This document shows, piece by piece, positions 6,920-31,688 of a stretch of DNA of 64,000 bases. Position numbers and translations under genes: made by a program. Under the pieces are notes generated by a model, which worked only from the letters and a program-made list of their open reading frames with translations, did no database searches and was not told the DNA's origin. Origin of the DNA: Candidatus Brocadiia bacterium (GTDB lineage Bacteria; Planctomycetota; MHYJ01; JACQXL01); NCBI GenBank assembly GCA_041658285.1, contig JBBAAP010000002.1, positions 44,252-108,251 on the forward strand, given 5' to 3'. The number at the start of each line of letters is the position of its first letter. Position 1 is the first letter of the stretch.

Positions 6920-7045
6920 CCACTGAAGGCACTGAAATCACTGAATTCAATCTTGATCTGTGGCTCCGTGGTTATCTTCCTTCCCCTAAAAAATAATTAT
7001 TCGCGCTTTCGTGTAGATTCGTGTTCATTCGTGGTTAAATTTGGC

Positions 7046-8947: not shown

Positions 8948-9111
8948 AAATATTCTTACTGCCGGTCTTCGATTCTCAGTTATCTTATCGGCAAAAACAG
9001 CCGGTCCGGCTCAGGAATTAGCCGTAAACCAAAATCCGCCGGAACGGCCCGGCGCCATTCCTGCATTAAACGCGCTTTCGCAGAGATATCGGCAATAACC
9101 GGTATTTTTGC

Positions 9112-10225: not shown

Positions 10226-10351
10226 GATACTACCCACCAATAGAGTTTCCATCTTTTTTCATCCCTTCGTGCTTTCGTGGTAAAAAAAGGCTGGACTAAA
10301 AATAGTATTCTCTGTGTTCTCCGTGTCCTCAGTGGTTAAATAGCGGCACTC

Positions 10352-10993: not shown

Positions 10994-11317
10994 CGTCCAT
11001 AGATTAACACGAATAAACACGAATGACTACTAATTTAGATATTTAATTTAAGTAAGCGGACCCGCCTGACTGACGCCCACCCGGATGAATATCCGTTCGG
11101 ACGGGTAGTCGGACAGGTTTAGCAGATATTGCAGATAAGTATAAATAATAAGGGCGCTGGGATTAGCCCAGCGCCCACCTTCGTGTCAATTCGAATTTAT
11201 TCGTGCATATTCGTGTTTATTCTAGGTATCCGCGTAACCAAATATTTATCGAAGTGAACACGCCATTCTTTCTTAGTGCTACTAGGAACAACGTGACGTA
11301 GAGGCAGTGCGTAGCCT

Positions 11318-11345
11318 CCTGGAAGGACTTAGATCCAGATGTACC
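11318..11345 (+). terminator. Candidate intrinsic terminator on the plus strand (CCCCGC-cttg-GCGGGG followed by a T-rich tract)
   Basis: A hairpin with a 6-7 bp GC stem is followed by TTAATCTTTTA. Both flanking genes are on the minus strand, so it would terminate an unannotated plus-strand transcript. Confidence 0.3.
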
Positions 11346-11447
11346 CCGCCTTGGCGGGGTTAATCTTTTATCATCTGAACAGAGCCTATTAGGAACAGTT
11401 CGACCAACGGGAGTTACTGTCCCTTATCCCGAGCGTAGTCTCGGGGT

Positions 11448-16769: not shown

Positions 16770-17705
16770 TTAGATATCGAAATTGATTCTTTCCTTTTCG
16801 ATAACCAAAGGCCTTTTGAATATCTGGGTATGAATAGCCCCGATATACTCGCCTAATATACCAAGGAAGAACAGTTGGACCGAAGCGAAAAAGAATAATC
16901 CGATGACTATAGGCGCAATACCTAATGAAAAACTCTGCCAGAAAATGATTTTATAGACTAAATAAGTAAAAGCCGTTAAGAAACTTATTGTACCCAGGAC
17001 AAAACCCACTATCGTCGCAAGCCTCAACGGTATCTTGGAATAACTGGTTATACCCACCATCGCCAGGTTATATAAGTAATAGAGATTTGTAGTGGTCCGG
17101 CCTTTATGGCGCGCCGGCTGGACGTATTCTATTCTGGCGGTCTCAAAACCTATTTCGGCAATAATACCCCTCAAGTAAGGATACATATCATTGATTTGCC
17201 TGAGGCTTTCTACCACCTTTTTATCGTACAGGCCAAAACCGGTAAAATGCTTTATCAACTCTGTGTTTGATAATTTGCCTAAAATCTTGTAGTATAAATT
17301 GCGCATAAATACCATGGGGAATGATTCTTTACGCCCTTTTATTATCCCTATCACTACTTTATAGCCCGATTCCCATTTCTTGATAAGTTCAGGTATCATC
17401 GATGGCGGGTCTTGCAAATCAGCCACGATTGAAATGGCCGCATCGCCTTTAGACTGCAACAATCCATAATAATGAGACCTCATGGCCTCAAAATTCCTGG
17501 AATTCACGATGATTTTAACATTTTTATCGTTTTGGGCGATTCCTTTTAATATTTCCACTGTCTTATCCTTGGACGCATTATCAATGAATATATGCTCGTA
17601 CTGGTAGTCTTTTAAATCAGCGAATACCTGCTTTACCTGTTTATAGACCTCGGCTACGTTTTCTTCCTCGTTATAGGTCGGCGTAACGATGCTTATTAGC
17701 TTCAT
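16770..17705 (-). CDS. GT2-family polyprenyl-phosphate glycosyltransferase (ArnC/GtrB/DPM1-like) with a C-terminal membrane anchor
   Basis: ISIVTPTYNEEENV carries the DxD-type GT-A motifs, and two C-terminal TM helices are present. It overlaps the GtrA-like gene by 4 nt. Confidence 0.8.
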   Translation of the reverse strand: MKLISIVTPTYNEEENVAEVYKQVKQVFADLKDYQYEHIFIDNASKDKTVEILKGIAQNDKNVKIIVNSRNFEAMRSHYYGLLQSKGDAAISIVADLQDPPSMIPELIKKWESGYKVVIGIIKGRKESFPMVFMRNLYYKILGKLSNTELIKHFTGFGLYDKKVVESLRQINDMYPYLRGIIAEIGFETARIEYVQPARHKGRTTTNLYYLYNLAMVGITSYSKIPLRLATIVGFVLGTISFLTAFTYLVYKIIFWQSFSLGIAPIVIGLFFFASVQLFFLGILGEYIGAIHTQIFKRPLVIEKERINFDI

Positions 17706-18070
17706 TTCTGCTCCTTGAATACGTATTTTTTATTAAGGATGAATGACAATACGGCCAGCGGCAATATCAATATCGCCCCGGCTAAATACATATTAACCTC
17801 TAACATATTGAATATTTTAAGGCAAGCTATATTCAACAGGTAAATAACCGCATAAACGCCTATGAATTTAAAAAGAAGGCTGTTACGGTTGCTTTTGAAT
17901 ACGAATATGCCGGTGGTCTTAAAATTGAAGAGCACGCCCAGAATGGTGGATGCCAAAGCGGCGATGGTATAATGCAGGCCGATATAAATAAATAATGCGT
18001 ATATGGAATATCCGAAAACGGTATTGACGCCGCCGACAATCAGAAAGCGTATGAATTGATGGTTCAGCAC
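17702..18070 (-). CDS. GtrA-family small membrane protein (polyprenyl-P-sugar flippase component-like)
   Basis: It has four TM helices, FIRFLIVGGVNTVFGY, and is 122 aa long. Confidence 0.7.
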   Translation of the reverse strand: MLNHQFIRFLIVGGVNTVFGYSIYALFIYIGLHYTIAALASTILGVLFNFKTTGIFVFKSNRNSLLFKFIGVYAVIYLLNIACLKIFNMLEVNMYLAGAILILPLAVLSFILNKKYVFKEQK

Positions 18071-18109: not shown

Positions 18110-19225
18110 CTATTTCTTGGATATTATCTTAACCAACGATTCGCATACAAAATCAACATCTTCTTCGGTCAGATTAGCGGCTGAGGCCAGGGAAATACCT
18201 CTTTTCTCTACTTTTTCCGCCTCCGGATTGGGAAATCTTGGCGGGCCGAAAAAAGGAAATAAACTCATTCTTGGGAATGCCGGCCGGCAATGGATGTTAA
18301 GTTCTTTCAGTCGCTTGACAACCTCATCCCTCGACACTGAAATATTATCCTGGAGCAGTATGGACGGATAACAGTAATTGCTTTTGCAGTCTTTTTTCTC
18401 CTTGATGATTTTGAGACCTTTTATATCTTTCAACCTTTGATAATACCAATCAAATATCTGCCGTTTTTTGGCAACCAGCTCGTTGATTCTTTCTACTTGA
18501 GCCAGCGCAATGGCCGCGGTCAAGTTGGCAATGGTATATTGATATCCGAGCATATCTGACCAAAAAACGGCCTTTGAGTCAGTCCGACCCATCGAAGCCA
18601 ACAAGCAAGCTTTTTCATATAGTTTATCATCATTCGTAACAAATACTCCGCCTTCGCCGCTGGCCGCTATTTTAGCCCCCTGAAAGCTGAAACAGGCAAT
18701 ATCTCCAAAAGTCCCTGTTTTTTGTCCTTTGAACTCCGCGCCTAATGATGGGGCGGCATCTTCTATAACTTTCAGGTTATGCTCTTTGGCTATGGCCATT
18801 ATTTCATCCATTTGCGCCGGATAACCGAATGTATGAACCAGCATTATCGCCTTAGTTTTATTGGTAATAGCTTTCTTTATGGCTTTAGGATCGATGCACC
18901 AGGAATCAGAGTCAATATCGACGAATACCACCTTAGCCCCGGTGTAAGCGATAGAGTACGATGTCGCCACCCAGCTGAAATCAGTGCAGATGACCTCGTC
19001 GCCCTCTTGAAGCCCCAGCGATGCGTTGGCCAGGTGAAGAGCCACAGTACAGCAATGCGTAGCCAAGGCGTGTTTCATCCCCAAATAATCGCAGACAGCC
19101 TTTTCTAGCTTTTTTGTATGCATGTCAAATGTCTCATACCAACCGTTCTTGGCGGCATCAACCACATAATCTATTTCTTTCTGCGTAATCCACGGTCCGG
19201 CAAAACTTATTTTTTTCCTTTGCAT
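18110..19225 (-). CDS. DegT/DnrJ/EryC1/StrS-family PLP-dependent sugar aminotransferase (ArnB-like)
   Basis: It is 371 aa and has the conserved Lys region and fold-type I AAT motifs, in a context with GT2 and GtrA genes. Confidence 0.85.
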   Translation of the reverse strand: MQRKKISFAGPWITQKEIDYVVDAAKNGWYETFDMHTKKLEKAVCDYLGMKHALATHCCTVALHLANASLGLQEGDEVICTDFSWVATSYSIAYTGAKVVFVDIDSDSWCIDPKAIKKAITNKTKAIMLVHTFGYPAQMDEIMAIAKEHNLKVIEDAAPSLGAEFKGQKTGTFGDIACFSFQGAKIAASGEGGVFVTNDDKLYEKACLLASMGRTDSKAVFWSDMLGYQYTIANLTAAIALAQVERINELVAKKRQIFDWYYQRLKDIKGLKIIKEKKDCKSNYCYPSILLQDNISVSRDEVVKRLKELNIHCRPAFPRMSLFPFFGPPRFPNPEAEKVEKRGISLASAANLTEEDVDFVCESLVKIISKK

Positions 19226-19241: not shown

Positions 19242-20396
19242 TTATAACTTGAGCAATCTTATGCTCGCCTCTGCCAACTCCTGCTCGCTTTTGGCGAAGC
19301 AAAACCTGACTATATTCTCACCGCCCTTTGAGTGATAAAATGCTTCTCCCGGCACTGTGGCCACGCCGGTTTTTTTCAACAAATACATGGACTTATCCTT
19401 GCTGGTCTTACCCGGCAATATATCGACATCGGCCAGGATGTAATACGCCCCTTTCGGGGCAAACGGCGTTAAGCCTATCCGGGAAAGAATATTGCAGATT
19501 TCGTTTCTTTTCAAATAGTATTTACGGCAAAGATTCTGGTAAAAGCTATCCGGCAATTTCATTATGCCGTTAGCCACGCCCATTTGAAGCGGCGTCGGGC
19601 CGCAGACATAGACCAAATCGTTGATATAACCTATCATCTTAGCCCATTTAGAGTCACAAACGCAATATCCTATGCGCCATCCGGTTATGCTGAATGCCTT
19701 GGAATAGCCGGAGATAGTAATTGTCCGGTTTTTTATTTCACTTAATGACCCGGGGCTTATGTGCTTCAGGCCGTCATAAACAAAATATTCGTATATCTCA
19801 TCGGTAAACACAAAAAAGTCGTGTTTTATCGCTAATCTGGCTATATCCTTCAATTCGGCCAAAGAAAAAACCTTACCGGCCGGATTTGACGGGGTGTTTA
19901 TCATTATGCCCTTGGTGCGCGGGCCGATAGCCTTAGCCAGGTCTTTCAAGTCAAACGACCAATCCGGCGGAGACAACTTCACATAAACCGGTTTTGCCCC
20001 GGCCGCAATCAAAGTATTGATATGGTATTCGTAATACGGCTCAAAAATAATGACTTCGTCTCCGGGGTTAAGCAAAGCTAGGCAGGCGCAATAAAATGCA
20101 CCGGTAGAGCCGGCAGAAACCACCACATCTGTTTCAGGGTTCGCATATATTCCATTATGCCGTTTCATCTTGGCCGCGATGGCATTACGCAATTCAGGCA
20201 GACCGTCATGCCGACTATAATAATTCAAGCCGTCATCCATGGCCTTTACGGCTCCCTTCTTAACAGCCGTTGGCAAGGGCATATTACATACGCCCTGCGA
20301 CATATTGATGCCACCCGCTTTTTCGCATTCCACTGACATATTGCGGATCTCTGAACGCACCAGTCTGGATGAACGCTTGCTTACTGACAACTTCAT
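19242..20396 (-). CDS. Class I/II PLP-dependent aminotransferase
   Basis: It is 384 aa and has an SGYSKAFS-type Lys motif and aspartate-aminotransferase-like organisation. Confidence 0.7.
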   Translation of the reverse strand: MKLSVSKRSSRLVRSEIRNMSVECEKAGGINMSQGVCNMPLPTAVKKGAVKAMDDGLNYYSRHDGLPELRNAIAAKMKRHNGIYANPETDVVVSAGSTGAFYCACLALLNPGDEVIIFEPYYEYHINTLIAAGAKPVYVKLSPPDWSFDLKDLAKAIGPRTKGIMINTPSNPAGKVFSLAELKDIARLAIKHDFFVFTDEIYEYFVYDGLKHISPGSLSEIKNRTITISGYSKAFSITGWRIGYCVCDSKWAKMIGYINDLVYVCGPTPLQMGVANGIMKLPDSFYQNLCRKYYLKRNEICNILSRIGLTPFAPKGAYYILADVDILPGKTSKDKSMYLLKKTGVATVPGEAFYHSKGGENIVRFCFAKSEQELAEASIRLLKL

Positions 20397-20397: not shown

Positions 20398-21027
20398 TTA
20401 TTTCACTTTCAGGGACAGAAGCATTTCAACATAATATCGTTTTATCGCGCCGGTGTAATTTGCGGGCGCCTCAACCCATTCGATTCTATCCTCTTTTTCG
20501 ATTCTTATCAAAGGTATCCGTCCTTTTTCCATGAAACCAAGCCTATCATAAAGGTTTAATGCCTTGGCATTGTCTGACATGACTTTCAGGGAATAATTTC
20601 CAAGATTCAAATTCTTTTGCCCCCATTCCATCATGTTTTTTATTGCATCGCCAATCAAGCCGGGACAACCCGGCTCGCCGCGGACAATATTATCGATTTC
20701 ACATATATTCTTATCATAATCAAACCTGAATAAACCTATATGCCCGATGTACTTATTTTTTACTTTTATTACAAACAACAACCTATCAGGCGTTTCAATC
20801 ACACCTTTTTGAAACCATTTTGTCGTGCCTTCTACCGTGACCTTGAATTGGGCCGGGAACCACATTTCATGTTGTTTCCGCCAGTTGGCAAGCAAACCCA
20901 TTAAAACTTGGTCTTGTGCGCATTCATCAGTCATCAGAATAAGGTCATATTCGCAGCCATTCAAATTACCCTTGATAATATCATCACCGAAATGGCTGTA
21001 TTTTAATTTTTTGATTCTTTCGAGCAT
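20398..21027 (-). CDS. GNAT-like N-acetyltransferase (PseH-like sugar N-acetyltransferase); weak call
   Basis: It is 209 aa, has the GNAT motif-A-like RGEPGCPGLIGDAI, and sits in a sugar-modification context. Confidence 0.4.
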   Translation of the reverse strand: MLERIKKLKYSHFGDDIIKGNLNGCEYDLILMTDECAQDQVLMGLLANWRKQHEMWFPAQFKVTVEGTTKWFQKGVIETPDRLLFVIKVKNKYIGHIGLFRFDYDKNICEIDNIVRGEPGCPGLIGDAIKNMMEWGQKNLNLGNYSLKVMSDNAKALNLYDRLGFMEKGRIPLIRIEKEDRIEWVEAPANYTGAIKRYYVEMLLSLKVK

Positions 21028-21052: not shown

Positions 21053-22849
21053 TTATTCTTTAATAGGTTTTATCACCATTTCACTGTTAAATTCCGCCCT
21101 GCTTAAAAATGGGTACATATCTTCAAGCGGCTTAGAAATCATAACGCCATCTGATTTTTTATATGAAGCGACCGTAGGCACAATCTCCTGGTTTCTTAAA
21201 CACATAACCTCGCATATTACGGCTTTGGAATAGGCTAATACTTTCTTTAATACCACATCAAGGTCTTTGCTGCGCGGCACCTTGAAATACTTGATGCCGT
21301 ACGCGGCAGCAATCTTTTGCACGCTGGGAAATGACACGCCGGAAGTCGAATCCGTTCCGATAAAACGCTTATCAAAAAACTTACCCTGGGTCGCCCTTAT
21401 GGACAGATAACCGTCATTGTTCCACACAAAAAGCTTGATGGGAAGTTTATAATGCACTACGGTTTGCAACTCCTGGATATTCATCTGGAATGAACCGTCC
21501 CCGGTAATACCGATAGTTTCCTTTTTATTCCTGGCGACGCAGACGCCGATGGCCGCCGGCAAGGTATATCCCATTTCCGCCTGTCCGCCGGATGTAATAT
21601 ACCGTTGTCCGTTTTTCAGCTGGATACCCTGGGAGGTAGCATAAAATGACGAGCCGGCATCTGAAACGACGGCCGAATCGGATTTCAGCTGTCTTGAAAG
21701 CCGGTCAACAAAATAGTAAAGATTTACGCCTTTTTTTTCTGATGCATATTCAGGCAAACAAACCGGATACTTTTTTTTCCATTCAAAGCATTTAGCCGCC
21801 CATCTTTGAGTATCTGGTTTTGGCTGACCCCTCATAGCCGTTATGAATTTACCGGCATCGGCATTAATGAATAGATTTATCTTTATAGTCTTTTTACGGT
21901 GCTCTTCCGGATCAATATCAATCACGGCTATCTTTGCCTGCCGGGCAAAGGTGTCATAAGCATGGCCGGTAGAACTTACGCTTAACCGGCTGCCGATGGC
22001 TATGACCAGGTCTGCATTCTGTACGGCAAGATTTCCGGCCCTATCCCCTTTGTTGCCTATGCGCCCTATGAATAAGGGGTGCGCGCTGGGCAGGATATTT
22101 ATCCCCAGCCGTGAAGCAACAACCGGAATACGGTAATTTTCGATGAATTTCCGGAACTTATCTATGGATTTTGACAGGCGAACACCCTGCCCCGCTATTA
22201 TGACCGGCCTTTGGGCCCGAGTAAGCCATTTGCTTATTGTATTTATTTCATCTTTGGTAGGTTCTTCTTTATATTTTTTAGCTAATTTTTTAGCGTCAAA
22301 TTTTTTAAGCTTTGACTCATCAATAATAGAGCTCTGCACATCAAGCGGTATATCAAGCCAGACCGGACCGGGACGCCCTGTTTTGGCAAGATAAGTTGCT
22401 TTATCCAGGTAATATTTTATTTCATATGGGTCATTGACCATAACCGCATATTTAGTCAGAGGCTCAACTATCGCGATTATGTCTGCTTCCTGGACCCCGA
22501 ATTGCCTTAATTTCAGGCCGGAATTGCGGACGGTCTCGCTGCGCTTAGATTGTCCTGAAATAAACATGCAAGGCACATTATCCTGCCAGGCGTTCAAAAG
22601 TCCGGTAATAGCGTTAGTCCCGCCGCACCCTGTCGTAACATAAGCGACTCCAAAATTTTCGTTATATTTAGCGTAGGACACGGCGGCCATTGCTGAGGCT
22701 TGTTCATGATGATTGCAAATAGCTTTGAGCTTGGGATGTTGCACAATGCCATCCGAGAGAAACATCATCCCTCCGCCGGAGACCATAAATACGTCCTTAA
22801 CCCCTAATTTATAAACGTAATCGGCAATATAATCAGCTATTCTTATCAT
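21053..22849 (-). CDS. Thiamine-pyrophosphate-dependent enzyme of the acetolactate synthase large-subunit family (YerE-like branched-sugar synthase candidate)
   Basis: It has the N-terminal TPP-Pyr domain, a central domain and the C-terminal TPP-binding GDGxF-N motif (ITGDGSFQMNIQEL). It sits adjacent to ddhABC. Confidence 0.8.
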   Translation of the reverse strand: MIRIADYIADYVYKLGVKDVFMVSGGGMMFLSDGIVQHPKLKAICNHHEQASAMAAVSYAKYNENFGVAYVTTGCGGTNAITGLLNAWQDNVPCMFISGQSKRSETVRNSGLKLRQFGVQEADIIAIVEPLTKYAVMVNDPYEIKYYLDKATYLAKTGRPGPVWLDIPLDVQSSIIDESKLKKFDAKKLAKKYKEEPTKDEINTISKWLTRAQRPVIIAGQGVRLSKSIDKFRKFIENYRIPVVASRLGINILPSAHPLFIGRIGNKGDRAGNLAVQNADLVIAIGSRLSVSSTGHAYDTFARQAKIAVIDIDPEEHRKKTIKINLFINADAGKFITAMRGQPKPDTQRWAAKCFEWKKKYPVCLPEYASEKKGVNLYYFVDRLSRQLKSDSAVVSDAGSSFYATSQGIQLKNGQRYITSGGQAEMGYTLPAAIGVCVARNKKETIGITGDGSFQMNIQELQTVVHYKLPIKLFVWNNDGYLSIRATQGKFFDKRFIGTDSTSGVSFPSVQKIAAAYGIKYFKVPRSKDLDVVLKKVLAYSKAVICEVMCLRNQEIVPTVASYKKSDGVMISKPLEDMYPFLSRAEFNSEMVIKPIKE

Positions 22850-22876
22850 AAATTAAGTTATTACTAAACTATATTA

Positions 22877-23626
22877 TTATATCGTAATAATCTTATCGTC
22901 TACTGCAACAAATGATTGCTTAAAAACCTTCTGTGCGTGTGATTGTGCTAATTTCCGGTCTTTTAACGATGTGTAAACGCTGGCGTCGAAATGGGTCAGA
23001 TATAATTTCGCGACTTTGGATTCCTTAGCAATCCCGGCGGCTGATTCCGGGTTTAAATGCGGCCATTCGGGGTTTACCTGCCCGCTTCTGAAAGCACATT
23101 CAGTTATCAGGATATCGGCGTTTTTGGCTATTTTTACGGCGTTTGGACAATATCCAGTATCCGGACAATAGCTGATAACCCTGGAATCGGTTTCTATCCG
23201 GCATCCTATCGTCATATCAGAGTGCTTGAGCCTGCTGACGGATATCTTGAACGGCAGCCTGGGCCGATCTTTCGGCAGTTCAAAAATGTCAACCTTAAAC
23301 GGCAGTTTACTAAAATCAATGGTATAAGGAGACTTGATAATTCTCCCTAGTGCACTTTTAGCGCCAACCGAGCTCAATATTGTAAGTTTTTTTAAAAACC
23401 GCAGTTTTGCCAGGGTATGCATGCCTTCTATATGGTCTAAATGGAAGTGGCTCAGAAAAAGGTATGCGGGCTTGGGATTATTTGAATCTATGTACCGGCC
23501 TAATTTATGAATTCCGTTGCCGGCATCCAGAACGATAAGGAATTGTTCGGTATTGATAAGAGTGCATATGGTGTTGCCTGTATTGGTGTCATACCAACCG
23601 TTGGTCCCTAAAAAAACGATTTGCAT
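22877..23626 (-). CDS. MBL-fold metallo-hydrolase
   Basis: The metallo-beta-lactamase motif is LSHFHLDHIEG. Confidence 0.7.
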   Translation of the reverse strand: MQIVFLGTNGWYDTNTGNTICTLINTEQFLIVLDAGNGIHKLGRYIDSNNPKPAYLFLSHFHLDHIEGMHTLAKLRFLKKLTILSSVGAKSALGRIIKSPYTIDFSKLPFKVDIFELPKDRPRLPFKISVSRLKHSDMTIGCRIETDSRVISYCPDTGYCPNAVKIAKNADILITECAFRSGQVNPEWPHLNPESAAGIAKESKVAKLYLTHFDASVYTSLKDRKLAQSHAQKVFKQSFVAVDDKIITI

Positions 23627-23627
23627 C

Positions 23628-24968
23628 TTATTCCCCGGTAAAATCCTTTATGCTCTTTATTATGTATTCTATCATCCCTTTTTTCATGCCCGGATAGACG
23701 CCCAGCCAGAATGACTGGTTCATTATCATATCGGTATTTTCCAGGCTCCCGATTGTTCTGTAACCCTTTTTGGATTTACGCATCTCGTCAAAACAGGGAT
23801 GTTTTATGATATTACCGCTAAAAAGCATCCGGGTCTGGATATTCCGGCCTTCCAGGTAGTTGACCAGTTCTTCCCTGCTAAAACCGGCATCTTCCTTTAC
23901 CGTTAGCATGAATCCGAACCAGCTGGGGTCCGTATTGCGCGATATCTCGGGAAGGATAAATTTATGGCTCAGGCCGAATAACCCATTCTTAAGTGATTGC
24001 CAGTTATTTTTCCTATCTTTTATGAAAGCAGGAAGCTTCTTCAATTGGGCGCAACCGATGGCCGCCTGCATATCAGTGGCCTTAAGGTTATACCCCAGAT
24101 GCGAATAGACATATTTATGGTCATAGCCGAACGGCAGTTCCCCGAATTTCTGGGTGAACCTGCTCCGGCAGGTGTTATCTTTACCGGACGGGCAAACGCA
24201 ATCACGCCCCCAATCCCTGAACGATTCAATCAGTTTCTTTAATAACGGATCATTGGTGTAAACCGCCCCGCCTTCCCCCATGGTCATATGATGCGGCGGA
24301 TAAAAGCTTGATGTCCCGATATGGCCGACGGTGCCGGTATACCGCCATTTGCCTTTATATAAATACCTGGAGCCCAACGAATCGCAGTTGTCTTCTATCA
24401 GCCATAAACCGTGCTTATTGCAGAATTCTTTTACTTTGGTTATGTCAAAGGGGTTGCCCAAAGTATGCGCAAAAATAACCGCTTTTGTTTTAGATGACAG
24501 CGCTTTTTCAAGCAAAGAACAATCAACGTTGTATGACGGCAGGCTGACATCAACAAACACAGGCACGGCGCCATATTGGATTATCGGCACGACCGTGGTC
24601 GGGAACCCGGCCGCCACGGTTATGACCTCATCACCTCTTTTTATCCGGCGCGGCCCGAGCCTGGGCGAGGTCAGGGCCATAAAGGCCAGCAGATTTGCCG
24701 AAGAACCGGAATTTACCAAGGAACAATACCTAACACCCAGGAATTCAGCCAGATTTTTTTCGAATTCGGCGGCGTATTTTCCGGTGGTCAACCAGAAGTC
24801 AAGCGCCGAATCGATTAAAGCGCTGATTTCCCGCTCGTCAAAGACACGCCCGGCATACGAGATACGATCACCAGGCTTGAATGCCCCGGTCTTCCTGTGG
24901 ACCAGCCGGTAATAACGGCCAGCTAAACTCATTATCTGTTTTTTAACACTGTCTCCGGAATCATTCAT
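23628..24968 (-). CDS. ddhC: CDP-6-deoxy-D-xylo-4-hexulose-3-dehydrase (E1, RfbH/DdhC)
   Basis: It is near-collinear with Yersinia DdhC: WLTTGKY, SGSSANLLA, VITVAAGFPTTV, FRDWGRDC, FGYDHKYVYSHLGYNLK.TDMQAA and DPSWFGF. The start is set at the MNDSG methionine to avoid overlap with ddhB. Confidence 0.85.
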   Translation of the reverse strand: MNDSGDSVKKQIMSLAGRYYRLVHRKTGAFKPGDRISYAGRVFDEREISALIDSALDFWLTTGKYAAEFEKNLAEFLGVRYCSLVNSGSSANLLAFMALTSPRLGPRRIKRGDEVITVAAGFPTTVVPIIQYGAVPVFVDVSLPSYNVDCSLLEKALSSKTKAVIFAHTLGNPFDITKVKEFCNKHGLWLIEDNCDSLGSRYLYKGKWRYTGTVGHIGTSSFYPPHHMTMGEGGAVYTNDPLLKKLIESFRDWGRDCVCPSGKDNTCRSRFTQKFGELPFGYDHKYVYSHLGYNLKATDMQAAIGCAQLKKLPAFIKDRKNNWQSLKNGLFGLSHKFILPEISRNTDPSWFGFMLTVKEDAGFSREELVNYLEGRNIQTRMLFSGNIIKHPCFDEMRKSKKGYRTIGSLENTDMIMNQSFWLGVYPGMKKGMIEYIIKSIKDFTGE

Positions 24969-24969
24969 A

Positions 24970-26055
24970 TCACACCTTTTGATTACCTGAGGAATATTCT
25001 TTAATCTGTTCCAGGCAAACATTCCTGAGGTTTGCCTTGTGCTTATAAGCCAAGGACCACTGGACCACCTTATCCAGGGCGTAAGAAAGATTCCAGCGCG
25101 GTTTCCAGCCCAGTAAAGCCCTGGCCTTGAAACAATTAAGCTTCAGGTAACCGGCTTCGTGGAGATGCTGTCTCTTGTCCACCACGTAAAAAGCATCTTT
25201 ACCCCATTTTTGGCAGAGTGTTTTAACAACCCATTCCACCGGTTGGGCATCTTTTTCGTCCGGCCCGAAATTCCATGCCTGGGCGTATCGGGGACCATTT
25301 TTGTAAAGTTTTTGGGCCAGGATAAGGTAACCGGCCAAAGGTTCCAGCACATACTGCCACGGTCTGATTGCCTTGGGATTCCTTATGATGATTTTTTTTC
25401 CTTTTAATAAAAAGTTTACGCAATCCGGAATAAGCCGGTCTCGCGCCCAGTCGCCGCCTCCGATGACATTCCCGGCCCGGGCGGTGGCCACAGCAACTCC
25501 GTGGGCGCGGTATTTATCCGGGTTGAAATAAGAATTGCGGTAAGCAGATGTCACCAGCTCCGAGCAAGCCTTACTGCTGGAATACGGGTCATAACCGCCC
25601 AGCGGGTCATTTTCCTTATACCCTTTAAGTACTTCCAGATTCTCATAGCATTTATCGGTAGTAACATTTATGATTGCCTTTACGCCTTTGCATTGCCTGA
25701 CGGACTCAAGGAGATTAACCGTGCCCATAATGTTTATGGCATAGGTCTCTACCGGCAGTTTATATGAATCGCGCACCAACGGCTGGGCCGCCATATGTAT
25801 GACGATTTCCGGCCGGGCCGACAAAATGGATTTTATCAACGACCGCAAATCACGGACATCCGCGATATTAGATTTGACCAATTTGTTTATCCGACACAAA
25901 TCGTACAAGCTTGGCTTTGTCGGCGGGTTTAAGGCATAACCGATAACCTTAGCGCCGAGAGAATGGAGCCAAAGACATAACCAGGAACCTTTGAAGCCGG
26001 TATGGCCGGTTATGAAAACCCTTTTATTGCGCCAAAAATTATTATCAACTGTCAT
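24970..26055 (-). CDS. ddhB: CDP-glucose 4,6-dehydratase
   Basis: It has the Rossmann motif GHTGFKGSWL and the SDR YxxxK, and is 361 aa as RfbG. Confidence 0.85.
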   Translation of the reverse strand: MTVDNNFWRNKRVFITGHTGFKGSWLCLWLHSLGAKVIGYALNPPTKPSLYDLCRINKLVKSNIADVRDLRSLIKSILSARPEIVIHMAAQPLVRDSYKLPVETYAINIMGTVNLLESVRQCKGVKAIINVTTDKCYENLEVLKGYKENDPLGGYDPYSSSKACSELVTSAYRNSYFNPDKYRAHGVAVATARAGNVIGGGDWARDRLIPDCVNFLLKGKKIIIRNPKAIRPWQYVLEPLAGYLILAQKLYKNGPRYAQAWNFGPDEKDAQPVEWVVKTLCQKWGKDAFYVVDKRQHLHEAGYLKLNCFKARALLGWKPRWNLSYALDKVVQWSLAYKHKANLRNVCLEQIKEYSSGNQKV

Positions 26056-26832
26056 TTAACGCCAGACCTTCCACGGCGCCTTATCGGCCGCCCAAAGGTT
26101 TTCTAAATAGTTCTTGTCCCTTAACGTATCCATCGGCTGGAAAAATCCTTTATGTTTAAACGCCTTTAGCTGACCTCTTTTTGCCAATGCCTCCAGCGGC
26201 TGTCTCTCCAAAATAGTGCTGTCATCTTTCAGGTAATCAAATATGGCCGGCTCAAATACGAAAAATCCGGCGTTTATCCAGCCGCCCTCACCCTTAGGCT
26301 TTTCCTGAAATCCTTTTACTGAATCATTTTGAGACAAATCAAGAACCCCGAACCTGCCTACAGGTTGGGATGCCGTAACAGTCGCTGTCTTGCCGTGCGC
26401 TTTATGGAATTTAACGGCCGCTTTGATATCCACATCGGCCACGCCATCGCCGTAAGTAAGCATAAATGAAGCTTTGCCCACATAGTCTTTAATCCTTTTC
26501 AGCCGACCGCCGGTCATCGTTTCAAGCCCGGTATTTACCAGGGTAACCTTCCACGGTTCGGCCGTATGGGTATGAATTATCTTTTTATTTTGGTTCTTAA
26601 AATCAAAGGTGACATTAGATTCGTGCAGGAAGTAGTTGGCAAAATACTCTTTTATGACATACCCCTTGTATCCCAGGCAGATGATAAAATCGTTGAATCC
26701 GTAATGCGAATAGATTTTCATGATGTGCCAAAGAACAGGTTTTTCGCCGATTTCAATCATCGGCTTGGGTTTAAGCTGAGATTCCTCGCTTATTCTGGAG
26801 CCCAAACCACCGGCAAGTATAACGACTTTCAT
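26056..26832 (-). CDS. ddhA: Glucose-1-phosphate cytidylyltransferase
   Basis: MKVVILAGGLGSRISEE...KPMIEIGEKPVLWHIM is typical of RfbF/DdhA. The length is 258 aa. Confidence 0.85.
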   Translation of the reverse strand: MKVVILAGGLGSRISEESQLKPKPMIEIGEKPVLWHIMKIYSHYGFNDFIICLGYKGYVIKEYFANYFLHESNVTFDFKNQNKKIIHTHTAEPWKVTLVNTGLETMTGGRLKRIKDYVGKASFMLTYGDGVADVDIKAAVKFHKAHGKTATVTASQPVGRFGVLDLSQNDSVKGFQEKPKGEGGWINAGFFVFEPAIFDYLKDDSTILERQPLEALAKRGQLKAFKHKGFFQPMDTLRDKNYLENLWAADKAPWKVWR

Positions 26833-26855: not shown

Positions 26856-28682
26856 TTATTTCAGGTAAATACTAGAAATCATTAATGATAAAGGCCTATC
26901 ATCTTCACTCCAACCCTTTTCCTTGGGAACCACCGCATAGTTAGATTGTATTTTCAAATTAATCAAACTATTTCGTTCAACATCAAGTTCAACTCTAAAA
27001 CTCTCACCCGGCTTAATGACTTTTGTAACAGATAATTTACCATCTATAAAAATCTCTACTTCATTAGGTTCAAAATTACCCGGAAGATAACCGTCAAGTA
27101 CCAGCTTGCCTTCTCCACCGCTTTTAAAAATCGCTTTGGCATTTTTGCCGACCCATTTATCCTGATACCAGCCATCCATCAGCATAGCTGTTTGCAAAGT
27201 ATTTCCAATCTTTTTACCTGCTTCATAATATACATTCAAATTATATTTTTCCATAATTTTCAAGCCATTAATAGTAGTATTCAAATCTGTTATAAATGGC
27301 GTCACGCCCCGTTCATCAACGGGCATTTCATCCGCAGAGACAAAGGCATACGGCACCATCACGGCAAAGTATTTTTTTACATACGGGGCGCGTTTCCAAT
27401 CGTAAATCTCTGAATATATAAGCGCTGAAACAATATAAAATATTATGGCGCTCATTATTAAAATAGGCTTATTTCCAAGCACTCTTTTCATTATATTTTC
27501 ACTCCCCGCATTCCCAGAGCCTCTCAGTAGCTGGGCCTTTTGCTGTATACTATAAATCAATATCCAAATTATGCCTACTATGCCAAACTTATAATGAACG
27601 GTATACCAACGGTCCGTGCCGCCAACCCAATCCCAGGGCCGGCCTATCAATACAAGAATTATTATGCCAAAAGTATACATTATCAATGCTATCGGGAGAA
27701 AAGTTTTCGTCCACATTTTTGAGGAAATGTATAATTTCAAGGAGTATAAATAAATAAGCATTAAAAAGAAACCGTTCAAGAGCAATACAGCAGAACTCGT
27801 ATGGACGTATTCGTGAATGGTCCTGCTGATTATGCCGTTACTGAGGGATGCCAGGATGAATTTAATCACGTGTAGCGGCTGCGAGATTATGCTTATTATT
27901 TTATTCGAAATCCCATTTACAGCCGGATCATTTTGTACTGAGATATGGCCTTTCAAGTAAATTATATAATATAGAAATAGCGAAATCATTAATAGAAGGG
28001 TATTAACAAAAAAACTTTTATCAATTTTTTTGGCAGTAACGAATTTTAATAAATAGAAAATAAAAACCGCCGGTATCCAGGCAAAAGAATACGCTGTCCC
28101 GAATATCAAGATTGACATCAATATCATTACTCCAAGTATTGTATATTTGATTTTAGAGGCCTTTTCCTCAAACATAATTTGGTCCAATAATGCAATTGTT
28201 ATCAAAAAGCAGGCTATGCTCATCCTCACCTGGATGTCCATCCCCCCCCCGATTCCCTGTGACACATTAAACATGACAAAGACAATGAGAATGAAAGATA
28301 TCGGTATGAATAATAAGGCATTAAAATGAAACAAGCTTTTCCTATACCTCAAATAAATGGCGATTGAACTTAATAATATCAAGCTCAAATTTATATAAGC
28401 GTCGAAAAACGCGTTCAGGTGGAAAAAGATTACATTTACAAGAAAAAGTACGTTGTAGCCAAACAAACCGTGTTCGCCGAAAGGAAACCATAAATCCTTG
28501 AATCCCAGAATGCCTTGGTGAAACTTCTCGACTAAAGGCAAATGAACAAACCAGGCCTGCCATATGACATTAACGATGCTGCTATGGATAAAAATAAAAT
28601 AATAAGCGCAAAAAGACAGCAATATTAGTATTATTAAATACTTTTCCCAAATTGAAGTTTTGTTATTCTCAAATGTTTCCAT
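26856..28682 (-). CDS. Polytopic membrane protein (more than 12 TM helices) with a ~180 aa C-terminal soluble domain; candidate GT-C-type (ArnT/PMT-like) glycosyltransferase or polymerase
   Basis: The call rests on hydrophobicity pattern only. I recognise no catalytic motif. Confidence 0.4.
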   Translation of the reverse strand: METFENNKTSIWEKYLIILILLSFCAYYFIFIHSSIVNVIWQAWFVHLPLVEKFHQGILGFKDLWFPFGEHGLFGYNVLFLVNVIFFHLNAFFDAYINLSLILLSSIAIYLRYRKSLFHFNALLFIPISFILIVFVMFNVSQGIGGGMDIQVRMSIACFLITIALLDQIMFEEKASKIKYTILGVMILMSILIFGTAYSFAWIPAVFIFYLLKFVTAKKIDKSFFVNTLLLMISLFLYYIIYLKGHISVQNDPAVNGISNKIISIISQPLHVIKFILASLSNGIISRTIHEYVHTSSAVLLLNGFFLMLIYLYSLKLYISSKMWTKTFLPIALIMYTFGIIILVLIGRPWDWVGGTDRWYTVHYKFGIVGIIWILIYSIQQKAQLLRGSGNAGSENIMKRVLGNKPILIMSAIIFYIVSALIYSEIYDWKRAPYVKKYFAVMVPYAFVSADEMPVDERGVTPFITDLNTTINGLKIMEKYNLNVYYEAGKKIGNTLQTAMLMDGWYQDKWVGKNAKAIFKSGGEGKLVLDGYLPGNFEPNEVEIFIDGKLSVTKVIKPGESFRVELDVERNSLINLKIQSNYAVVPKEKGWSEDDRPLSLMISSIYLK

Positions 28683-28776: not shown

Positions 28777-29469
28777 TTAAGGGAAAATTTGTTTTATTGC
28801 CTTATGATAATCTTCGGGTACGCCTATGTCTATGAAGTAATTCCTACTGGCAAAACCTATTATATTATTATCGGCTATTATCCCGGGAAGGAAATCTATT
28901 TCAAAGCTGAATTTGCCCGGGGAACCGGACATTTTTCTCTTCAGGAATCCTGTTCCCGCCAGATATACCCCGCCGTTTATATGCGCTTTTTTATAAAACG
29001 CCTTTTCCTTAAAACATATTATTTTATTATTCCCGTCTAATTCGACTATGCCGTACCGATCGGAATCCGTTATTTCCTTAACAGCTATGGTCATATCCGC
29101 TTTTTTGTCGTTATGAAACTGTTTCAAGCCATTGATATCACACTTAAAAATAGTATCACCGTTCAGGATAAGAACCTGTTCTCCTGAACACAAGGTCAAC
29201 GCCTTCTTTATGGCTCCGCCGGTGCCCAAAGGCTCGGTTTCCTCGGAGTATTTCAGCTTTATCCCATGCCAGATGTCCCCGAAACGTTCTTTTATCAACT
29301 CGCGCCTGTACCCTACCGCCAGGATGACGGTATCCGCGTAATTTTTGATGTCCGCAAATAGGTATTCCAGGAATGGCCGGCCGTTTATGTCTATCAACGG
29401 CTTGGGGATATCTTTGGAGATTTCTTTGAGGCGTGTGCCCTTACCGCCCGCTAAAATAATCGCTTGCAT
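28777..29469 (-). CDS. Sugar-1-phosphate nucleotidyltransferase (HddC-like D-glycero-D-manno-heptose-1-phosphate guanylyltransferase)
   Basis: MQAIILAGGKGTRLKEIS..PKPLIDINGRPFLEYLF is the NTP-transferase fold. It is 230 aa. Confidence 0.7.
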   Translation of the reverse strand: MQAIILAGGKGTRLKEISKDIPKPLIDINGRPFLEYLFADIKNYADTVILAVGYRRELIKERFGDIWHGIKLKYSEETEPLGTGGAIKKALTLCSGEQVLILNGDTIFKCDINGLKQFHNDKKADMTIAVKEITDSDRYGIVELDGNNKIICFKEKAFYKKAHINGGVYLAGTGFLKRKMSGSPGKFSFEIDFLPGIIADNNIIGFASRNYFIDIGVPEDYHKAIKQIFP

Positions 29470-29613
29470 ATTTTACTAAGTTTCAACCACGAATGTACAC
29501 GAATAAACACTAATATTATTTTTATTTTAACCGCGGATTATACTAATTTTACTGATTATTATTAATTTGTAATGTTACAAGTCTCTTTAAAGTCACTGTT
29601 ATATTCAATCTGA

Positions 29614-31677: not shown

Positions 31678-31688
31678 AAACGCACCTC

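Follow-up and report, generated by a model that had tools for sequence, protein, structure and literature searches.

Background

In the yersiniose A pathway of Yersinia pseudotuberculosis (YerE/YerF), the ddhA, ddhB and ddhC products lead to CDP-4-keto-3,6-dideoxyglucose, which is then acylated at C4 by a ThDP-dependent enzyme (PMC9306805, PMC12247030). The erwiniose cluster of Pectobacterium atrosepticum (ErwE/ErwF/ErwI/ErwJ) carries a dedicated module for the 2-oxo-acid donor beside its ThDP enzyme (PMC9306805), and for JanthE from Janthinobacterium sp. HH01, in vitro coupling of 2-oxo acids with ketones has been shown (PMC12188165, PMC12247030). The hallmarks of E1 dehydrases such as DdhC are a catalytic histidine and an Fe-S cysteine motif, and in the case of the E1 enzyme SpnQ, the E3 partner can be replaced by general reductase pairs with ferredoxin or flavodoxin, while in the absence of a reductase SpnQ turns to aminotransfer (PMC8987622).

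This type of pathway is already known, and the gene set described here is an unusual form of it. It comes from the MAG of an uncultured planctomycete and lies in what we call the window, the whole 64,000-nucleotide stretch of contig JBBAAP010000002.1 that was analysed (positions 44,252 to 108,251; coordinates below are those of the window). We give a probability of about 0.7 to the reading that this locus builds and exports a C4-branched 3,6-dideoxyhexose by way of a CDP sugar, a YerE/JanthE-like ThDP enzyme and polyprenyl phosphate, a product that is possibly also aminated and N-acetylated.

Layout of the locus

All of the genes named in a first-pass annotation of this DNA, ddhA, ddhB, ddhC and the gene of a TPP enzyme, were confirmed on the minus strand, with the coordinates given there. 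From 26832 to 16770, the genes on this strand are separated by gaps of -4 to 39 nt, a spacing that fits one operon, and the minus-strand run from 28682 to 16770 most likely forms a single module within a long operon for surface glycan. The same operon includes a second nucleotide-sugar pathway, of the HddA/HddC/Gmd type, and a Gmd/DmhA-like dehydratase. The TPP gene lies near ddhC and encodes 598 aa, as had been annotated, but it is not two genes away, since a single gene intervenes (22877..23626, minus strand). This encodes a phosphodiesterase-like MBL-fold hydrolase of 249 aa (Lactamase_B_2) with sub-threshold matches to RNase Z, cyclic-nucleotide phosphodiesterase and PhnP, and its orthologues (47-51% identity) adjoin ddhB or E1 in three related loci, L105 among them.

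The ddhA, ddhB and ddhC genes

Family calls were judged against the NCBIfam curated cut-offs, and each of the three ddh genes exceeded its own, in agreement with their recognition at first pass. The ddhA product, a glucose-1-phosphate cytidylyltransferase of 258 aa (26056..26832, minus strand), scored 429.9 bits against TIGR02623 (cut-off 300), and the ddhB product, a CDP-glucose 4,6-dehydratase of 361 aa (24970..26055, minus strand), scored 490.5 bits against TIGR02622 (cut-off 278). The ddhC/rfbH gene (23628..25022, minus strand) encodes an E1-type PMP- and [2Fe-2S]-dependent CDP-4-keto-6-deoxyglucose 3-dehydrase, with 722.9 bits against NF011936 (cut-off 423); its ORF is 464 aa long, and translation probably begins at M19 (coordinate 24968), for a protein of 446 aa. 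The protein was described at first pass as near-collinear with Yersinia DdhC, and it does align end to end with the Y. pseudotuberculosis E1 (PDB 3bcx; 524 bits), with 54% identity across 430 residues. The catalytic histidine is kept (His244, Yersinia H220), and the cysteines C213-x61-C275-x-C277-x7-C285 align with the Yersinia pattern C-x57-C-x-C-x7-C, with a 4-residue insertion.

A ddhD-type E3, defined as a protein with Fer2, FAD_binding_6 and NAD_binding_1 domains, was found neither by a domain scan of window ORFs of at least 150 aa nor by tblastn of a genuine ddhD from a related locus against the window (best E = 0.16), in agreement with its earlier reported absence. ddhD was present in 1 of 34 well-flanked related loci and in 0 of 10 further loci, and none lies within 10 kb of the JanthE gene. 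With no dedicated E3, electrons for DdhC would come from general ferredoxin/flavodoxin systems, as in SpnQ, and complete 3-deoxygenation by the window DdhC is assumed here.

A probable YerE/JanthE-like TPP enzyme and its clade

The 598-aa protein (21053..22849, minus strand) bears three TPP domains and has both a GDG-x24-NN motif and the catalytic HHEQ. Its best NCBIfam score was to TIGR00118, the acetolactate synthase large subunit, at 379 bits against a cut-off of 538, and no acetolactate-synthase or sulfoacetaldehyde-acetyltransferase (Xsc) model was reached at its curated cut-off, these being the two assignments that the first-pass annotation had named as contrary to its YerE-like reading. 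Among solved relatives, JanthE (8rph) scored 433 bits, PpYerE (5ahk), the solved YerE homologue that represents the YerE side of this comparison, 257 bits, and AHAS at most 222 bits, the JanthE score being about twice that of any AHAS; identity was 38% to JanthE and about 32% to PpYerE. The AHAS His and Arg positions are K267 and S292 in the window protein, and 45 of 51 clade members have Ser or Thr in place of the acceptor-binding Arg of AHAS; PpYerE retains this Arg, whereas the window enzyme does not. Placement against YerE and true acetolactate synthases had been set beforehand as a test, and in a bootstrapped NJ tree three AHAS were split from all other enzymes, PpYerE included, with 100% support, while another 100% split held the window enzyme and JanthE, with the PpYerE pair and AHAS outside. 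Together with the ddhABC synteny, these comparisons bear out the YerE-like reading and support a TPP protein that, by sequence, would be YerE/JanthE-like, in a distinct clade.

The clade (51-73% identity) spans many bacterial phyla, about 15 for the link to ddhABC, as well as archaea, and its TPP genes nearly always adjoin ddhA/B/C, as does the JanthE gene. In the 34 well-flanked related loci, which come from many phyla and archaea, the TPP gene has ddhA beside it in 32, E1 in 30 and an SDR in 32. The closest relatives (71-73% identity) share the order ddhA, ddhB, ddhC, aminotransferase, TPP, SDR, and the JanthE locus reads ddhA, ddhB, ddhC, JanthE, SDR, acetaldehyde dehydrogenase, aldolase, SDR, GT2. 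Three kinds of 2-oxo-acid-forming module are found next to the TPP gene and nearly exclude one another, only one locus having more than one of them: 21 loci have an AspAT-like aminotransferase, 4 a DmpG/DmpF-type pair of aldolase and acetaldehyde dehydrogenase (cf. ErwI/ErwJ), and 3 a PanB-like enzyme. The window departs from its relatives in having no AspAT-like gene upstream of the TPP gene and no YerF-like reductase downstream. No SDR adjoins the TPP gene, the nearest being at 30652-32543 as part of an HddA/HddC-type heptose module, so that the remark that an obvious YerF reductase is missing holds; no aldolase/acetaldehyde-dehydrogenase pair was found in the window.

A GNAT/aminotransferase/DegT cassette beside the TPP gene

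The place of the AspAT-like gene and the YerF-like reductase is occupied by a three-gene cassette, set within a TPP-to-GT2 block that is otherwise conserved. Its first gene (20398..21027, minus strand) encodes a GNAT (Acetyltransf_3) N-acetyltransferase of 209 aa, for which the best named NCBIfam match, PseH, was weak and the best PDB matches, diamine and spermidine N-acetyltransferases, reached only about 33 bits. The second (19242..20396, minus strand) encodes a class-I (AspAT/KAT/YbdL-type) amino-acid aminotransferase of 384 aa (Aminotran_1_2, 220 bits; best PDB matches 1gd9, 1dju and KAT3), and the third (18110..19225, minus strand) a DegT-family aminotransferase of 371 aa (PF01041, 355 bits), whose best PDB match is GDP-perosamine synthase (3bn1, 253 bits) and whose weaker matches include inosose and Kdo8N transaminases.

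The cassette recurs, at 50-80% identity, in other loci where ddh genes occur together with the gene of a thiamine enzyme. The GNAT family has 94 members, and in each of the six contexts looked up, ddhA and a ddhB-like dehydratase gene were accompanied by genes for a ThDP enzyme and a DegT-family aminotransferase, which makes 7 of 7 GNAT-centred loci with the window counted. Loci L105-L108 each have an E1 and a ThDP enzyme, and their cassettes match that of the window at 77-80% (DegT), 67-71% (class-I aminotransferase) and 50-57% (GNAT). The class-I enzyme shares 65-71% identity with its cassette counterparts in L105-L108 and L110, compared to only 26-32% with the canonical aminotransferase upstream of the TPP gene in other loci. 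L105 and L108 have a c5-like SDR and an aldolase pair alongside the cassette, which thus does not cleanly take over from YerF and is not an obligatory donor source; in L107 it is paired with a transketolase. L109 has the order ddhA, ddhB, DegT, GNAT, GT2 with no E1, and its DegT, being only 44% identical to that of the window, may be a different enzyme. The presence of this cassette beside the TPP gene suggests tailoring chemistry different from that of the yersiniose pathway, an alternative that the first-pass annotation had left open.

Probable genes for lipid-carrier export

The gene at 17702..18070 (minus strand) encodes a small GtrA-family membrane protein of 122 aa (PF04138, 61.7 bits), a putative polyprenyl-phosphate-linked sugar flippase with orthologues in three related loci. 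Beside it, a GtrB/ArnC-type polyprenyl-phosphate glycosyltransferase (GT2) of 311 aa (16770..17705, minus strand) has two C-terminal TM helices and full-length matches to PDB 5ekp (GtrB sll0501; 187 bits) and ArnC (106 bits), and in 10 of the 34 loci, an orthologue (45-65% identity) comes after the gene of the TPP enzyme or the SDR. At the other end of the run, a polytopic membrane protein of 608 aa (26856..28682, minus strand) with a C-terminal beta-sandwich had no match in Pfam or NCBIfam; in the representative library, 433 homologues of it occur. For its AF2 model (pLDDT 93.9, pTM 0.92), Foldseek ranked the GT-C enzymes AglB (7e9s, E = 8e-5) and ArnT (5f15/5ezm) highest in the PDB, at a TM of about 0.4, and L109 has a PMT_2 GT-C at the equivalent position upstream of ddhA. 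From the model, this protein is probably a glycosyltransferase of GT-C fold, for which the lipid-linked sugar would be the substrate.

Proposed pathway and alternative readings

Given their equivalog-level family membership, DdhA and DdhB would produce CDP-4-keto-6-deoxy-D-glucose, from which the E1-type DdhC would take off the 3-hydroxyl with electrons from the general systems mentioned above. Homology and conserved synteny suggest that the ThDP enzyme would then decarboxylate a 2-oxo acid and put the acyl anion on the C4 ketone, giving a tertiary alcohol and an acyl branch. In nearly all relatives, a YerF-like SDR would reduce the branch ketone; at the window locus, where this SDR is absent, we favor a route in which DegT would aminate the branch ketone and the GNAT would N-acetylate the amine, with the class-I aminotransferase, the window's only candidate for donor supply, giving the 2-oxo acid from an amino acid. 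This is the most speculative step of the pathway. Through the GtrB-like GT2, the sugar would pass from its CDP carrier onto polyprenyl phosphate; GtrA would aid flipping, and the GT-C-fold 608-aa protein would add the sugar to a cell-surface glycan.

Several observations stand against the favored pathway. The TPP pocket has K267, S292, H296 and T559 where JanthE has Y268, P293, Y297 and K567; the best solved relative of DegT, GDP-perosamine synthase, is a C4 aminotransferase; the DegT and GNAT of L109, without E1, look like plain C4 amination and acetylation; and the HddA/HddC/Gmd-type pathway in the same operon could feed DegT another 4-keto substrate. An unlikely reading, on which these last three points bear, is that the locus makes two products, with DegT and the GNAT acting on a C4 ketone (of CDP-4-keto-6-deoxy- or 3,6-dideoxy-glucose, or of a GDP-4-keto sugar from the heptose module) to give a 4-acetamido deoxysugar, and the YerE-like enzyme separately making a sugar with an acyl branch, the ketone of which stays as it is or is reduced by the product of a gene elsewhere. 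The match of the GNAT to PseH, a sugar 4-N-acetyltransferase, agrees with this, but simple C4 amination would need neither E1 nor a ThDP carboligase, both of which always accompany the orthologous cassette; moreover, the distant DegT of L109 makes that locus a doubtful parallel, and the window cassette lies inside the conserved TPP-to-GT2 block. It is quite improbable that the cassette makes the donor, an N-acetylated amino-2-oxo acid loaded on C4 by the ThDP enzyme, for instance by an ectoine-like route from aspartate semialdehyde through 2,4-diaminobutyrate and its N-gamma-acetyl form to 4-acetamido-2-oxobutanoate. The solved relatives of the GNAT act on small molecules, the class-I enzyme is an amino-acid aminotransferase, some DegT enzymes use substrates other than nucleotide sugars, and 2-oxo-acid-making modules flank the TPP gene elsewhere; the GNAT matches are, however, at only the low scores given above, the aldolase pair in L105 and L108 could itself supply the donor, and the usual transketolase donors (cf. 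L107) are ketose phosphates, not 2-oxo acids.

The favored product also presumes a complete 3-deoxygenation. The scarcity of ddhD and the aminotransfer by SpnQ without a reductase would both be consistent with an incomplete one, leaving a 6-deoxy rather than a 3,6-dideoxy branched sugar, with CDP-4-keto-6-deoxyglucose or an E1-derived amino/ene intermediate as the ThDP acceptor. We consider this very unlikely, as the kept Fe-S cysteines and catalytic histidine make sense only if electron transfer is retained, general reductase pairs substitute for E3 in SpnQ, the JanthE locus likewise has no nearby ddhD, and the acceptor of characterized YerE-like enzymes such as YpYerE and ErwE is taken as CDP-4-keto-3,6-dideoxyglucose (PMC12247030, PMC9306805). 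It is hardly credible that the TPP protein serves ordinary metabolism, as an acetolactate synthase, a sulfoacetaldehyde acetyltransferase or another such TPP enzyme, and stands in a glycan operon by chance: TIGR00118 is its top NCBIfam model and its relatives are publicly annotated as 'acetolactate synthase', but the shortfall from the cut-off is large, JanthE far outscores every AHAS, the AHAS acceptor Arg is absent, the ORFs scanned included no ilvN-type small subunit, and the TPP gene adjoins ddh genes in dozens of unrelated lineages.

Comparison with known systems

JanthE (PDB 8rph/8rpi/8rpj) is the best solved relative of the window enzyme, to which it aligns over its full length with a common three-domain fold and the catalytic HHEQ, and its gene directly follows ddhA, ddhB and ddhC with no ddhD nearby, the same locus type as in the window. 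The two differ in the pocket and in the ThDP motif, which is an unusual CDG in JanthE and a canonical GDG here, and the JanthE locus has an aldolase, an acetaldehyde dehydrogenase and two SDRs where the window has the GNAT/aminotransferase/DegT cassette. The window follows the logic of the yersiniose A pathway, without ddhD and without a YerF-like SDR next to the TPP gene, and PpYerE is the second-best solved match of its enzyme yet belongs to a different clade; the donor here need not be pyruvate, nor the branch two-carbon. An aldolase/acetaldehyde-dehydrogenase pair of the erwiniose (Erw) type occurs in eight related loci, L105 among them; the window lacks it and has the class-I aminotransferase as the sole candidate for donor supply. 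With the three-component Gtr/Arn systems (GtrA, GtrB or ArnC, GtrC or ArnT), the window shares GtrA and a GtrB/ArnC-like GT2, although its presumed donor is a CDP-linked branched sugar rather than UDP-glucose or UDP-Ara4FN, and its 608-aa protein, which has no recognizable sequence family, is one whose model best fits, to a moderate degree, the GT-C enzymes AglB and ArnT.

The ddhABC genes and the TPP enzyme probably form part of one operon

In the gene map of the window, the minus-strand genes from ~36689 down to 16770 are spaced by a few bases to ~140 nt, and because of these short gaps the run fits one long glycan operon. The three ddh genes named in the first-pass annotation all lie on the minus strand within it, and all score past their equivalog cut-offs: ddhA, glucose-1-phosphate cytidylyltransferase (26056-26832; TIGR02623, 429.9 bits against 300.25), with residues 1-257 covering profile positions 1-255 of 255; ddhB, CDP-glucose 4,6-dehydratase (24970-26055; TIGR02622, 490.5 bits against 278.45); and ddhC/rfbH, the E1 CDP-4-keto-6-deoxyglucose 3-dehydrase (23628-25022; NF011936, 722.9 bits against 423). 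The true start of ddhC is probably M19, at coordinate 24968, with which the apparent overlap with ddhB disappears. An antisense ORF inside ddhC (24331-24912, plus strand, 193 aa) has "homologues" in 24 related loci because E1 is strongly conserved on the opposite strand, and was rejected as a conservation artefact rather than a gene.

The near-collinearity of this E1 with its Yersinia counterpart, noted at first reading, was borne out by alignment with the Yersinia pseudotuberculosis enzyme (PDB 3bcx, 524 bits, query 24-463 against chain 4-434, 54% identity). His244 of DdhC, in FYPPHHMT, aligns with the catalytic H220 of the Yersinia E1, a column marked by the H220K mutant 3bb8, which has a lysine there. 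Residues C213, C275, C277, and C285 match the [2Fe-2S] motif C-x57-C-x-C-x7-C, with a first spacing of x61 owing to a 4-residue insertion. DdhC thereby retains the predicted [2Fe-2S] cysteine motif and the catalytic histidine of E1, the two features, His in place of the aminotransferase Lys and the Fe-S cysteines, that set E1 and SpnQ apart from ColD-type dehydratases (PMC8987622).

Between ddhC and the TPP gene lies an MBL-fold hydrolase (22877-23626, minus strand; Lactamase_B_2), a recurrent neighbor of ddhB or E1 with 47-51% identity in three related loci (L007, L059, and L105). The L105 copy bears the Pfam Anti-Pycsar Apyc1 signature of a cyclic pyrimidine-nucleotide phosphodiesterase, and a cytidine-nucleotide phosphodiesterase has no obvious role inside a CDP-sugar cluster.

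The TPP protein is a predicted YerE-like carboligase

The 598-aa TPP protein (21053-22849, minus strand) has the three-domain architecture PF02776, PF00205, and PF02775, with an intact ThDP motif, GDG-x(24-27)-NN (GDGSFQMN...NNDGY from residue 450), and the catalytic HHEQ. Its identity as a biosynthetic acetolactate synthase (AHAS; IlvB/IlvG/IlvI) was rejected by four separate tests: HMM cut-offs, PDB ranking, a neighbor-joining tree, and the residue at position 292. The best AHAS model, TIGR00118, gave 379 bits against a cut-off of 538 and the PRK AHAS models 250-370 bits against 738-1084; no AHAS, glyoxylate carboligase, or sulfoacetaldehyde acetyltransferase model scores the protein above its curated cut-off. 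A PDB search ranked JanthE (8rph, 433 bits) above 5ahk (257 bits), AHAS (at most 222 bits), and glyoxylate carboligase (183 bits). Entry 5ahk is presumably the PpYerE of Hampel et al. 2018. JanthE is the YerE-like carboligase of Janthinobacterium sp. HH01 (PMC12188165).

The tree was built from a modest sample with 300 bootstrap replicates, with JanthE and PpYerE taken from PDB alignments and YpYerE, ErwE, and MMAR_2332 outside the sample. Three AHAS sequences split off from all others, including the PpYerE pair, with 100% bootstrap; a second 100% split separated the window clade plus JanthE from AHAS plus the PpYerE pair, and the window's own clade also received 100%. At the aligned position, where the AHAS of E. 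coli, yeast, and Candida keep the arginine of the RFDDR motif, the window enzyme has Ser292, and 45 of 51 clade members have Ser or Thr. In AHAS this arginine (At R377 / Sc R380) holds the carboxylate group of the 2-keto acid acceptor. The placement suggested at first reading, with YerE rather than true acetolactate synthases, thus stands in that the protein groups with JanthE and apart from AHAS. We regard it as a predicted YerE-like ThDP carboligase that is nearer to the characterized enzymes of this kind than to AHAS or any other TPP family.

Lys267 is present in 49 of 51 main-clade enzymes, the corresponding residue being Tyr in JanthE, PpYerE, and their relatives and His in AHAS. A cationic residue conserved in the pocket might indicate that the donor is acidic, for instance oxaloacetate or 2-oxoglutarate, a reading that would fit the AspAT-like partner gene found in many related loci.

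A widespread clade with putative alternative donor-supply genes

Relatives of the TPP enzyme number in the thousands, the best 120 being 66-73% identical, and a scan of GTDB species representatives yielded 55 loci. Bacterial loci came from Desulfobacterota/Geobacter, Verrucomicrobiota, Acidobacteriota, Planctomycetota, Elusimicrobia, Patescibacteria, Lachnospiraceae, Bacteroides, Thiomicrorhabdus, and Sporomusa, and archaeal loci from Bathyarchaeia, Micrarchaeota, and Methanobacteriaceae. The main clade, marked by K267/S292, is 51-73% identical from methanogen-related archaea to Lachnospiraceae. Its cultured carriers include Sporomusa acidovorans DSM 3132, Thiomicrorhabdus arctica DSM 13458, and Petralouisia muris.

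Neighboring ORFs were clustered, representatives were annotated with Pfam, and counts were taken over the 34 loci with adequate flanks. The canonical order is ddhA, ddhB, ddhC, an AspAT-like aminotransferase (~392 aa), the TPP gene, and an SDR, with an optional FkbM methyltransferase and GtrB-like GT2. Beside the TPP gene, ddhA was found in 32/34 loci, E1 in 30/34, an SDR of group c5, c8, c9, or c66 in 32/34, and a GtrB-like GT2 in 10/34. Genes for CDP-4-keto-3,6-dideoxyglucose accompany the TPP gene in the window, in the JanthE locus, and, depending on the gene, in 24-32 of the 34 loci. The three closest relatives looked up (71-73% identity) have the canonical order, with the partial exception of L062, where ddhA and ddhB are on the opposite strand and no E1 occurs within the stretch covered. 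The JanthE locus reads ddhA, ddhB, ddhC, JanthE, SDR, acetaldehyde dehydrogenase, aldolase, SDR, GT2.

Three kinds of 2-oxo-acid gene adjoin the TPP gene: the AspAT-like aminotransferase (21 loci), a DmpG/DmpF-type aldolase with acetaldehyde dehydrogenase (4 loci), and a PanB-like hydroxymethyltransferase (3 loci). They are nearly mutually exclusive, only one locus (L043) having more than one, and we infer that they are alternative modules supplying the 2-oxo-acid donor. The aldolase/dehydrogenase pair of the four loci corresponds to the ErwI/ErwJ arrangement of the ErwE system, which feeds 4-hydroxy-2-oxopentanoate to ErwE (PMC9306805). L043, from a Candidatus Gastranaerophilales MAG, encodes three TPP paralogues (3303-5087, 7242-8966, and 10001-11791), belonging to the main clade, to an aldolase-associated group, and to the group with PpYerE, together with PanB-like, aldolase, acetaldehyde dehydrogenase, and SDR genes, and may be a factory for several branched sugars.

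A conserved cassette in place of the usual reductase in the window

Compared with the ORF clusters of the related loci, the window lacks the canonical aminotransferase, the aldolase pair, and the PanB-like gene. It also holds no orthologue of the c5, c8, c9, or c66 SDRs, so the absence of a YerF-like reductase remarked on in the first-pass annotation extends to all four TPP-associated groups. The 284-aa SDR at 31689-32543 was rejected as the primary candidate for a YerF substitute, as it is unlike these groups and adjoins HddA-, HddC-, and Gmd-like genes.

Directly downstream of the TPP gene are, all on the minus strand, a GNAT (20398-21027), a class-I amino-acid aminotransferase (19242-20396) with AspAT, aromatic aminotransferase, and KAT as PDB neighbors, and a DegT-family aminotransferase (18110-19225) with GDP-perosamine synthase as its top PDB match. 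The class-I enzyme is not the canonical TPP partner, to which it is only 26-32% identical. A metagenome scan with it returned relatives at 53-56% identity with no ddh/TPP context, and its orthologues (65-71% identity) surfaced only via the neighborhoods of the GNAT.

A search with the GNAT defined a discrete family of 94 proteins, six neighborhoods of which, seven with the window, were used to establish the context of the cassette. L105 reads ddhA, ddhB, MBL, E1, TPP, acetaldehyde dehydrogenase, aldolase, SDR, GNAT, aminotransferase, DegT, GT2, and L108 has the same order with no MBL gene and with E1 placed after the cassette. L106 reads TPP, ddhA, E1, GNAT, aminotransferase, DegT, E1-like, GT2, and L107 reads ddhA, ddhB-like dehydratase, GT2, TAL/FSA aldolase, split transketolase, GNAT, aminotransferase, DegT, E1. 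L110 comprises ddhA, ddhB, TPP, E1, aminotransferase, and DegT, plus split transketolase and GNAT, and L109 comprises GT-C (PMT_2), ddhA, ddhB, DegT, GNAT, GT2, and split transketolase. Identity to the window in L105-L108 is 77-80% for DegT, 67-71% for the class-I aminotransferase, and 50-57% for the GNAT, against 40-46% for the accompanying TPP enzymes, indicating that the three genes are a conserved cassette. Judged by identity and gene order, this cassette moves among loci in every one of which CDP-deoxyhexose genes are accompanied by a ThDP-dependent enzyme that forms C-C bonds.

In L107, L109, and L110, split transketolase genes accompany the GNAT and DegT genes (in L107 together with the TAL/FSA aldolase), a hint that branches introduced by a transketolase-type enzyme receive the same tailoring. 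In L106, a 174-aa ORF between ddhA and E1 (7007-7561) resembles only the N-terminal half of a c8 SDR (33% over 151 aa) and may be the remnant of a displaced reductase.

The dedicated E3 reductase is absent from nearly all loci

No Fer2/FAD_binding_6/NAD_binding_1 protein of the DdhD/AscD type was found in the 64-kb window by domain scans, and the ddhD of L040 used as a tblastn query against the window gave a best E of 0.16, in agreement with the earlier remark that the E3 partner of E1 is missing from it. Of the 34 well-flanked loci, 33 likewise lack the gene, as do ten more, that of JanthE among them; the sole ddhD beside a TPP gene (1/34) is that of L040, from Thiomicrorhabdus. A regex scan of the loci for E3 gave this true match and two false ones, L045 and L046, which were rejected because their matches lack the FNR motif. 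SpnQ functions with general ferredoxin or flavodoxin reductase pairs (PMC8987622), and from this precedent and the conserved Fe-S motif of the window E1 we assume it likely that the enzyme draws on housekeeping electron carriers. The near-universal lack of ddhD bears on the electron supply of E1-type 3-dehydrases outside enterobacteria.

The operon encodes a putative lipid-carrier export route

The GT2 encoded at 16770-17705 (minus strand) aligns along its whole length with Synechocystis GtrB (5ekp, 187 bits) and ArnC (106 bits) and carries two hydrophobic helices at the C-terminus; its gene overlaps by 4 nt a GtrA-family gene (17702-18070, minus strand). Ten other loci have a GT2 orthologue (45-65% identity) after the TPP or SDR gene. 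Directly upstream of ddhA is a gene for a 608-aa polytopic protein, for which a Pfam scan of the protein and 81 homologues gave no useful family match. An AlphaFold2 model from the 82-sequence alignment (pLDDT 93.9, pTM 0.92) had the GT-C enzymes AglB and ArnT as its three best PDB matches (E 8e-5 to 2e-3, TM ~0.4) and ends in a beta-sandwich resembling carbohydrate-binding modules; in L109, a recognizable PMT_2 GT-C occupies the same position. This fold-level support suggests a putative GT-C glycosyltransferase.

The Gtr/Arn system comprises a GtrA protein, a polyprenyl-phosphate GT2, and a GT-C, and the window has a GtrA, a GtrB/ArnC-like GT2, and a GT-C-fold candidate at TM ~0.4. Taken together, the GT2 homology, GtrA, and the fold match suggest a Gtr/Arn-like lipid-carrier route, in which the GT2 would transfer the sugar from its CDP-sugar to polyprenyl phosphate, the lipid-linked sugar would be flipped across the membrane, and the GT-C-type protein would transfer it to a surface glycan.

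Other genes of the window

Within the same operon, 28777-32543 (minus strand) encodes an HddC-like nucleotidyltransferase (209 bits), an HddA-like GHMP kinase (428 bits), a Gmd/DmhA-like 4,6-dehydratase, and the RmlD-like 284-aa SDR, all under equivalog cut-offs. An assignment of 30652-32543 as rmlB and rmlD was rejected, and these genes were re-read, as their scores for it are well under the cut-offs; the four genes together point to a pathway of the GDP-(6-deoxy)heptose type. A 1379-aa fusion of SAM-methyltransferase, GT2, and GT1 domains (32550-36689, minus strand) is probably a glycosyltransferase that polymerizes or terminates the same glycan. Two AbiEii-family nucleotidyltransferase toxin genes (type IV toxin-antitoxin/abortive infection; 37071-37745 and 39440-40009, minus strand) are interleaved with genuine rmlC (38555-39094) and rmlA (40139-41020) genes. 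Outside the glycan operon are an 1818-aa protein with a PQQ-like beta-propeller and DUF11 (51935-57391, plus strand), a 289-aa protein of three HTH_17 repeats (57568-58437, minus strand), and an 838-aa protein with RCC1 repeats and fn3 domains (60524-63040, minus strand).

Proposed branch chemistry and comparison with known pathways

ThDP acyloin condensation always generates a new ketone, at C1' of the branch. The most economical, though not secure, reading of the cassette is that DegT would aminate this ketone and the GNAT would N-acetylate the amine, in place of reduction by an SDR, with the class-I aminotransferase making the 2-oxo-acid donor for the ThDP enzyme. Several observations make this reading insecure. 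The closest solved relative of DegT is a C4 aminotransferase, and L109 resembles a simple C4 amination and acetylation system with no E1, although its DegT is only 44% identical to that of the window; the HddC-, HddA-, Gmd/DmhA-like, and SDR genes of the operon could offer another 4-keto substrate for such a reaction. L105 and L108 retain the aldolase pair and a c5-like SDR beside the cassette. As a third reading, the weak similarity of the GNAT to diamine N-acetyltransferases suggested that the cassette builds an acetamido-2-oxo-acid donor.

Amination and acetylation of the branch enters a wider proposal, to which we give a probability of roughly 30%: that the mobile cassette converts the ketone of a ThDP-installed acyl branch to an acetamido group, yielding C4-(acetamidoalkyl)-branched 3,6-dideoxyhexoses, with no dedicated E3 and with CDP-sugar-dependent delivery by GtrB, GtrA, and GT-C, and that the main K267/S292 clade is a widespread carboligase with amino-acid-derived donors, distinct from YerE, ErwE, and JanthE. 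As far as could be established, the literature holds no description of such sugars. The basis of all these readings is sequence, synteny, and predicted structure.

Yersiniose, erwiniose, and caryophyllose are examples of acyl-branched deoxysugars, which are rare surface-antigen determinants; the ThDP enzymes responsible for them are in demand as biocatalysts for chiral tertiary alcohols. The locus would extend this chemistry to Planctomycetota, places its enzyme in a very widespread, tightly conserved bacterial and archaeal clade with no characterized member, and points to alternative tailoring, transamination and N-acetylation instead of ketoreduction, and to lipid-carrier export. The general idea of a YerE-like enzyme beside ddhABC is already known: such an enzyme is an established source of the acyl-branched 3,6-dideoxyhexose yersiniose and the proposed source of erwiniose, caryophyllose, and gastriose, and a 2024 study is credited with predicting >200 YerE-like enzymes in silico from gene-cluster similarity (PMC12247030). 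As this idea is published, the gain is incremental unless the amino-branch chemistry is confirmed. Relative to the literature compared, which did not include Krug et al. 2024 (an in-silico survey of YerE-like enzymes) or Lanza et al. 2024 (on JanthE), the apparently new elements are the size, conservation, cross-domain spread, and K267/S292 signature of the clade, the AspAT-like aminotransferase that usually accompanies it, the lack of E3 in nearly all of these clusters, and, in the window, a mobile cassette in place of the reductase, together with a Gtr-type export module. In the YerE/YerF pathway of the yersiniose type, an SDR stands beside the ThDP enzyme, whereas in the window that place is taken by the GNAT, aminotransferase, and DegT genes.
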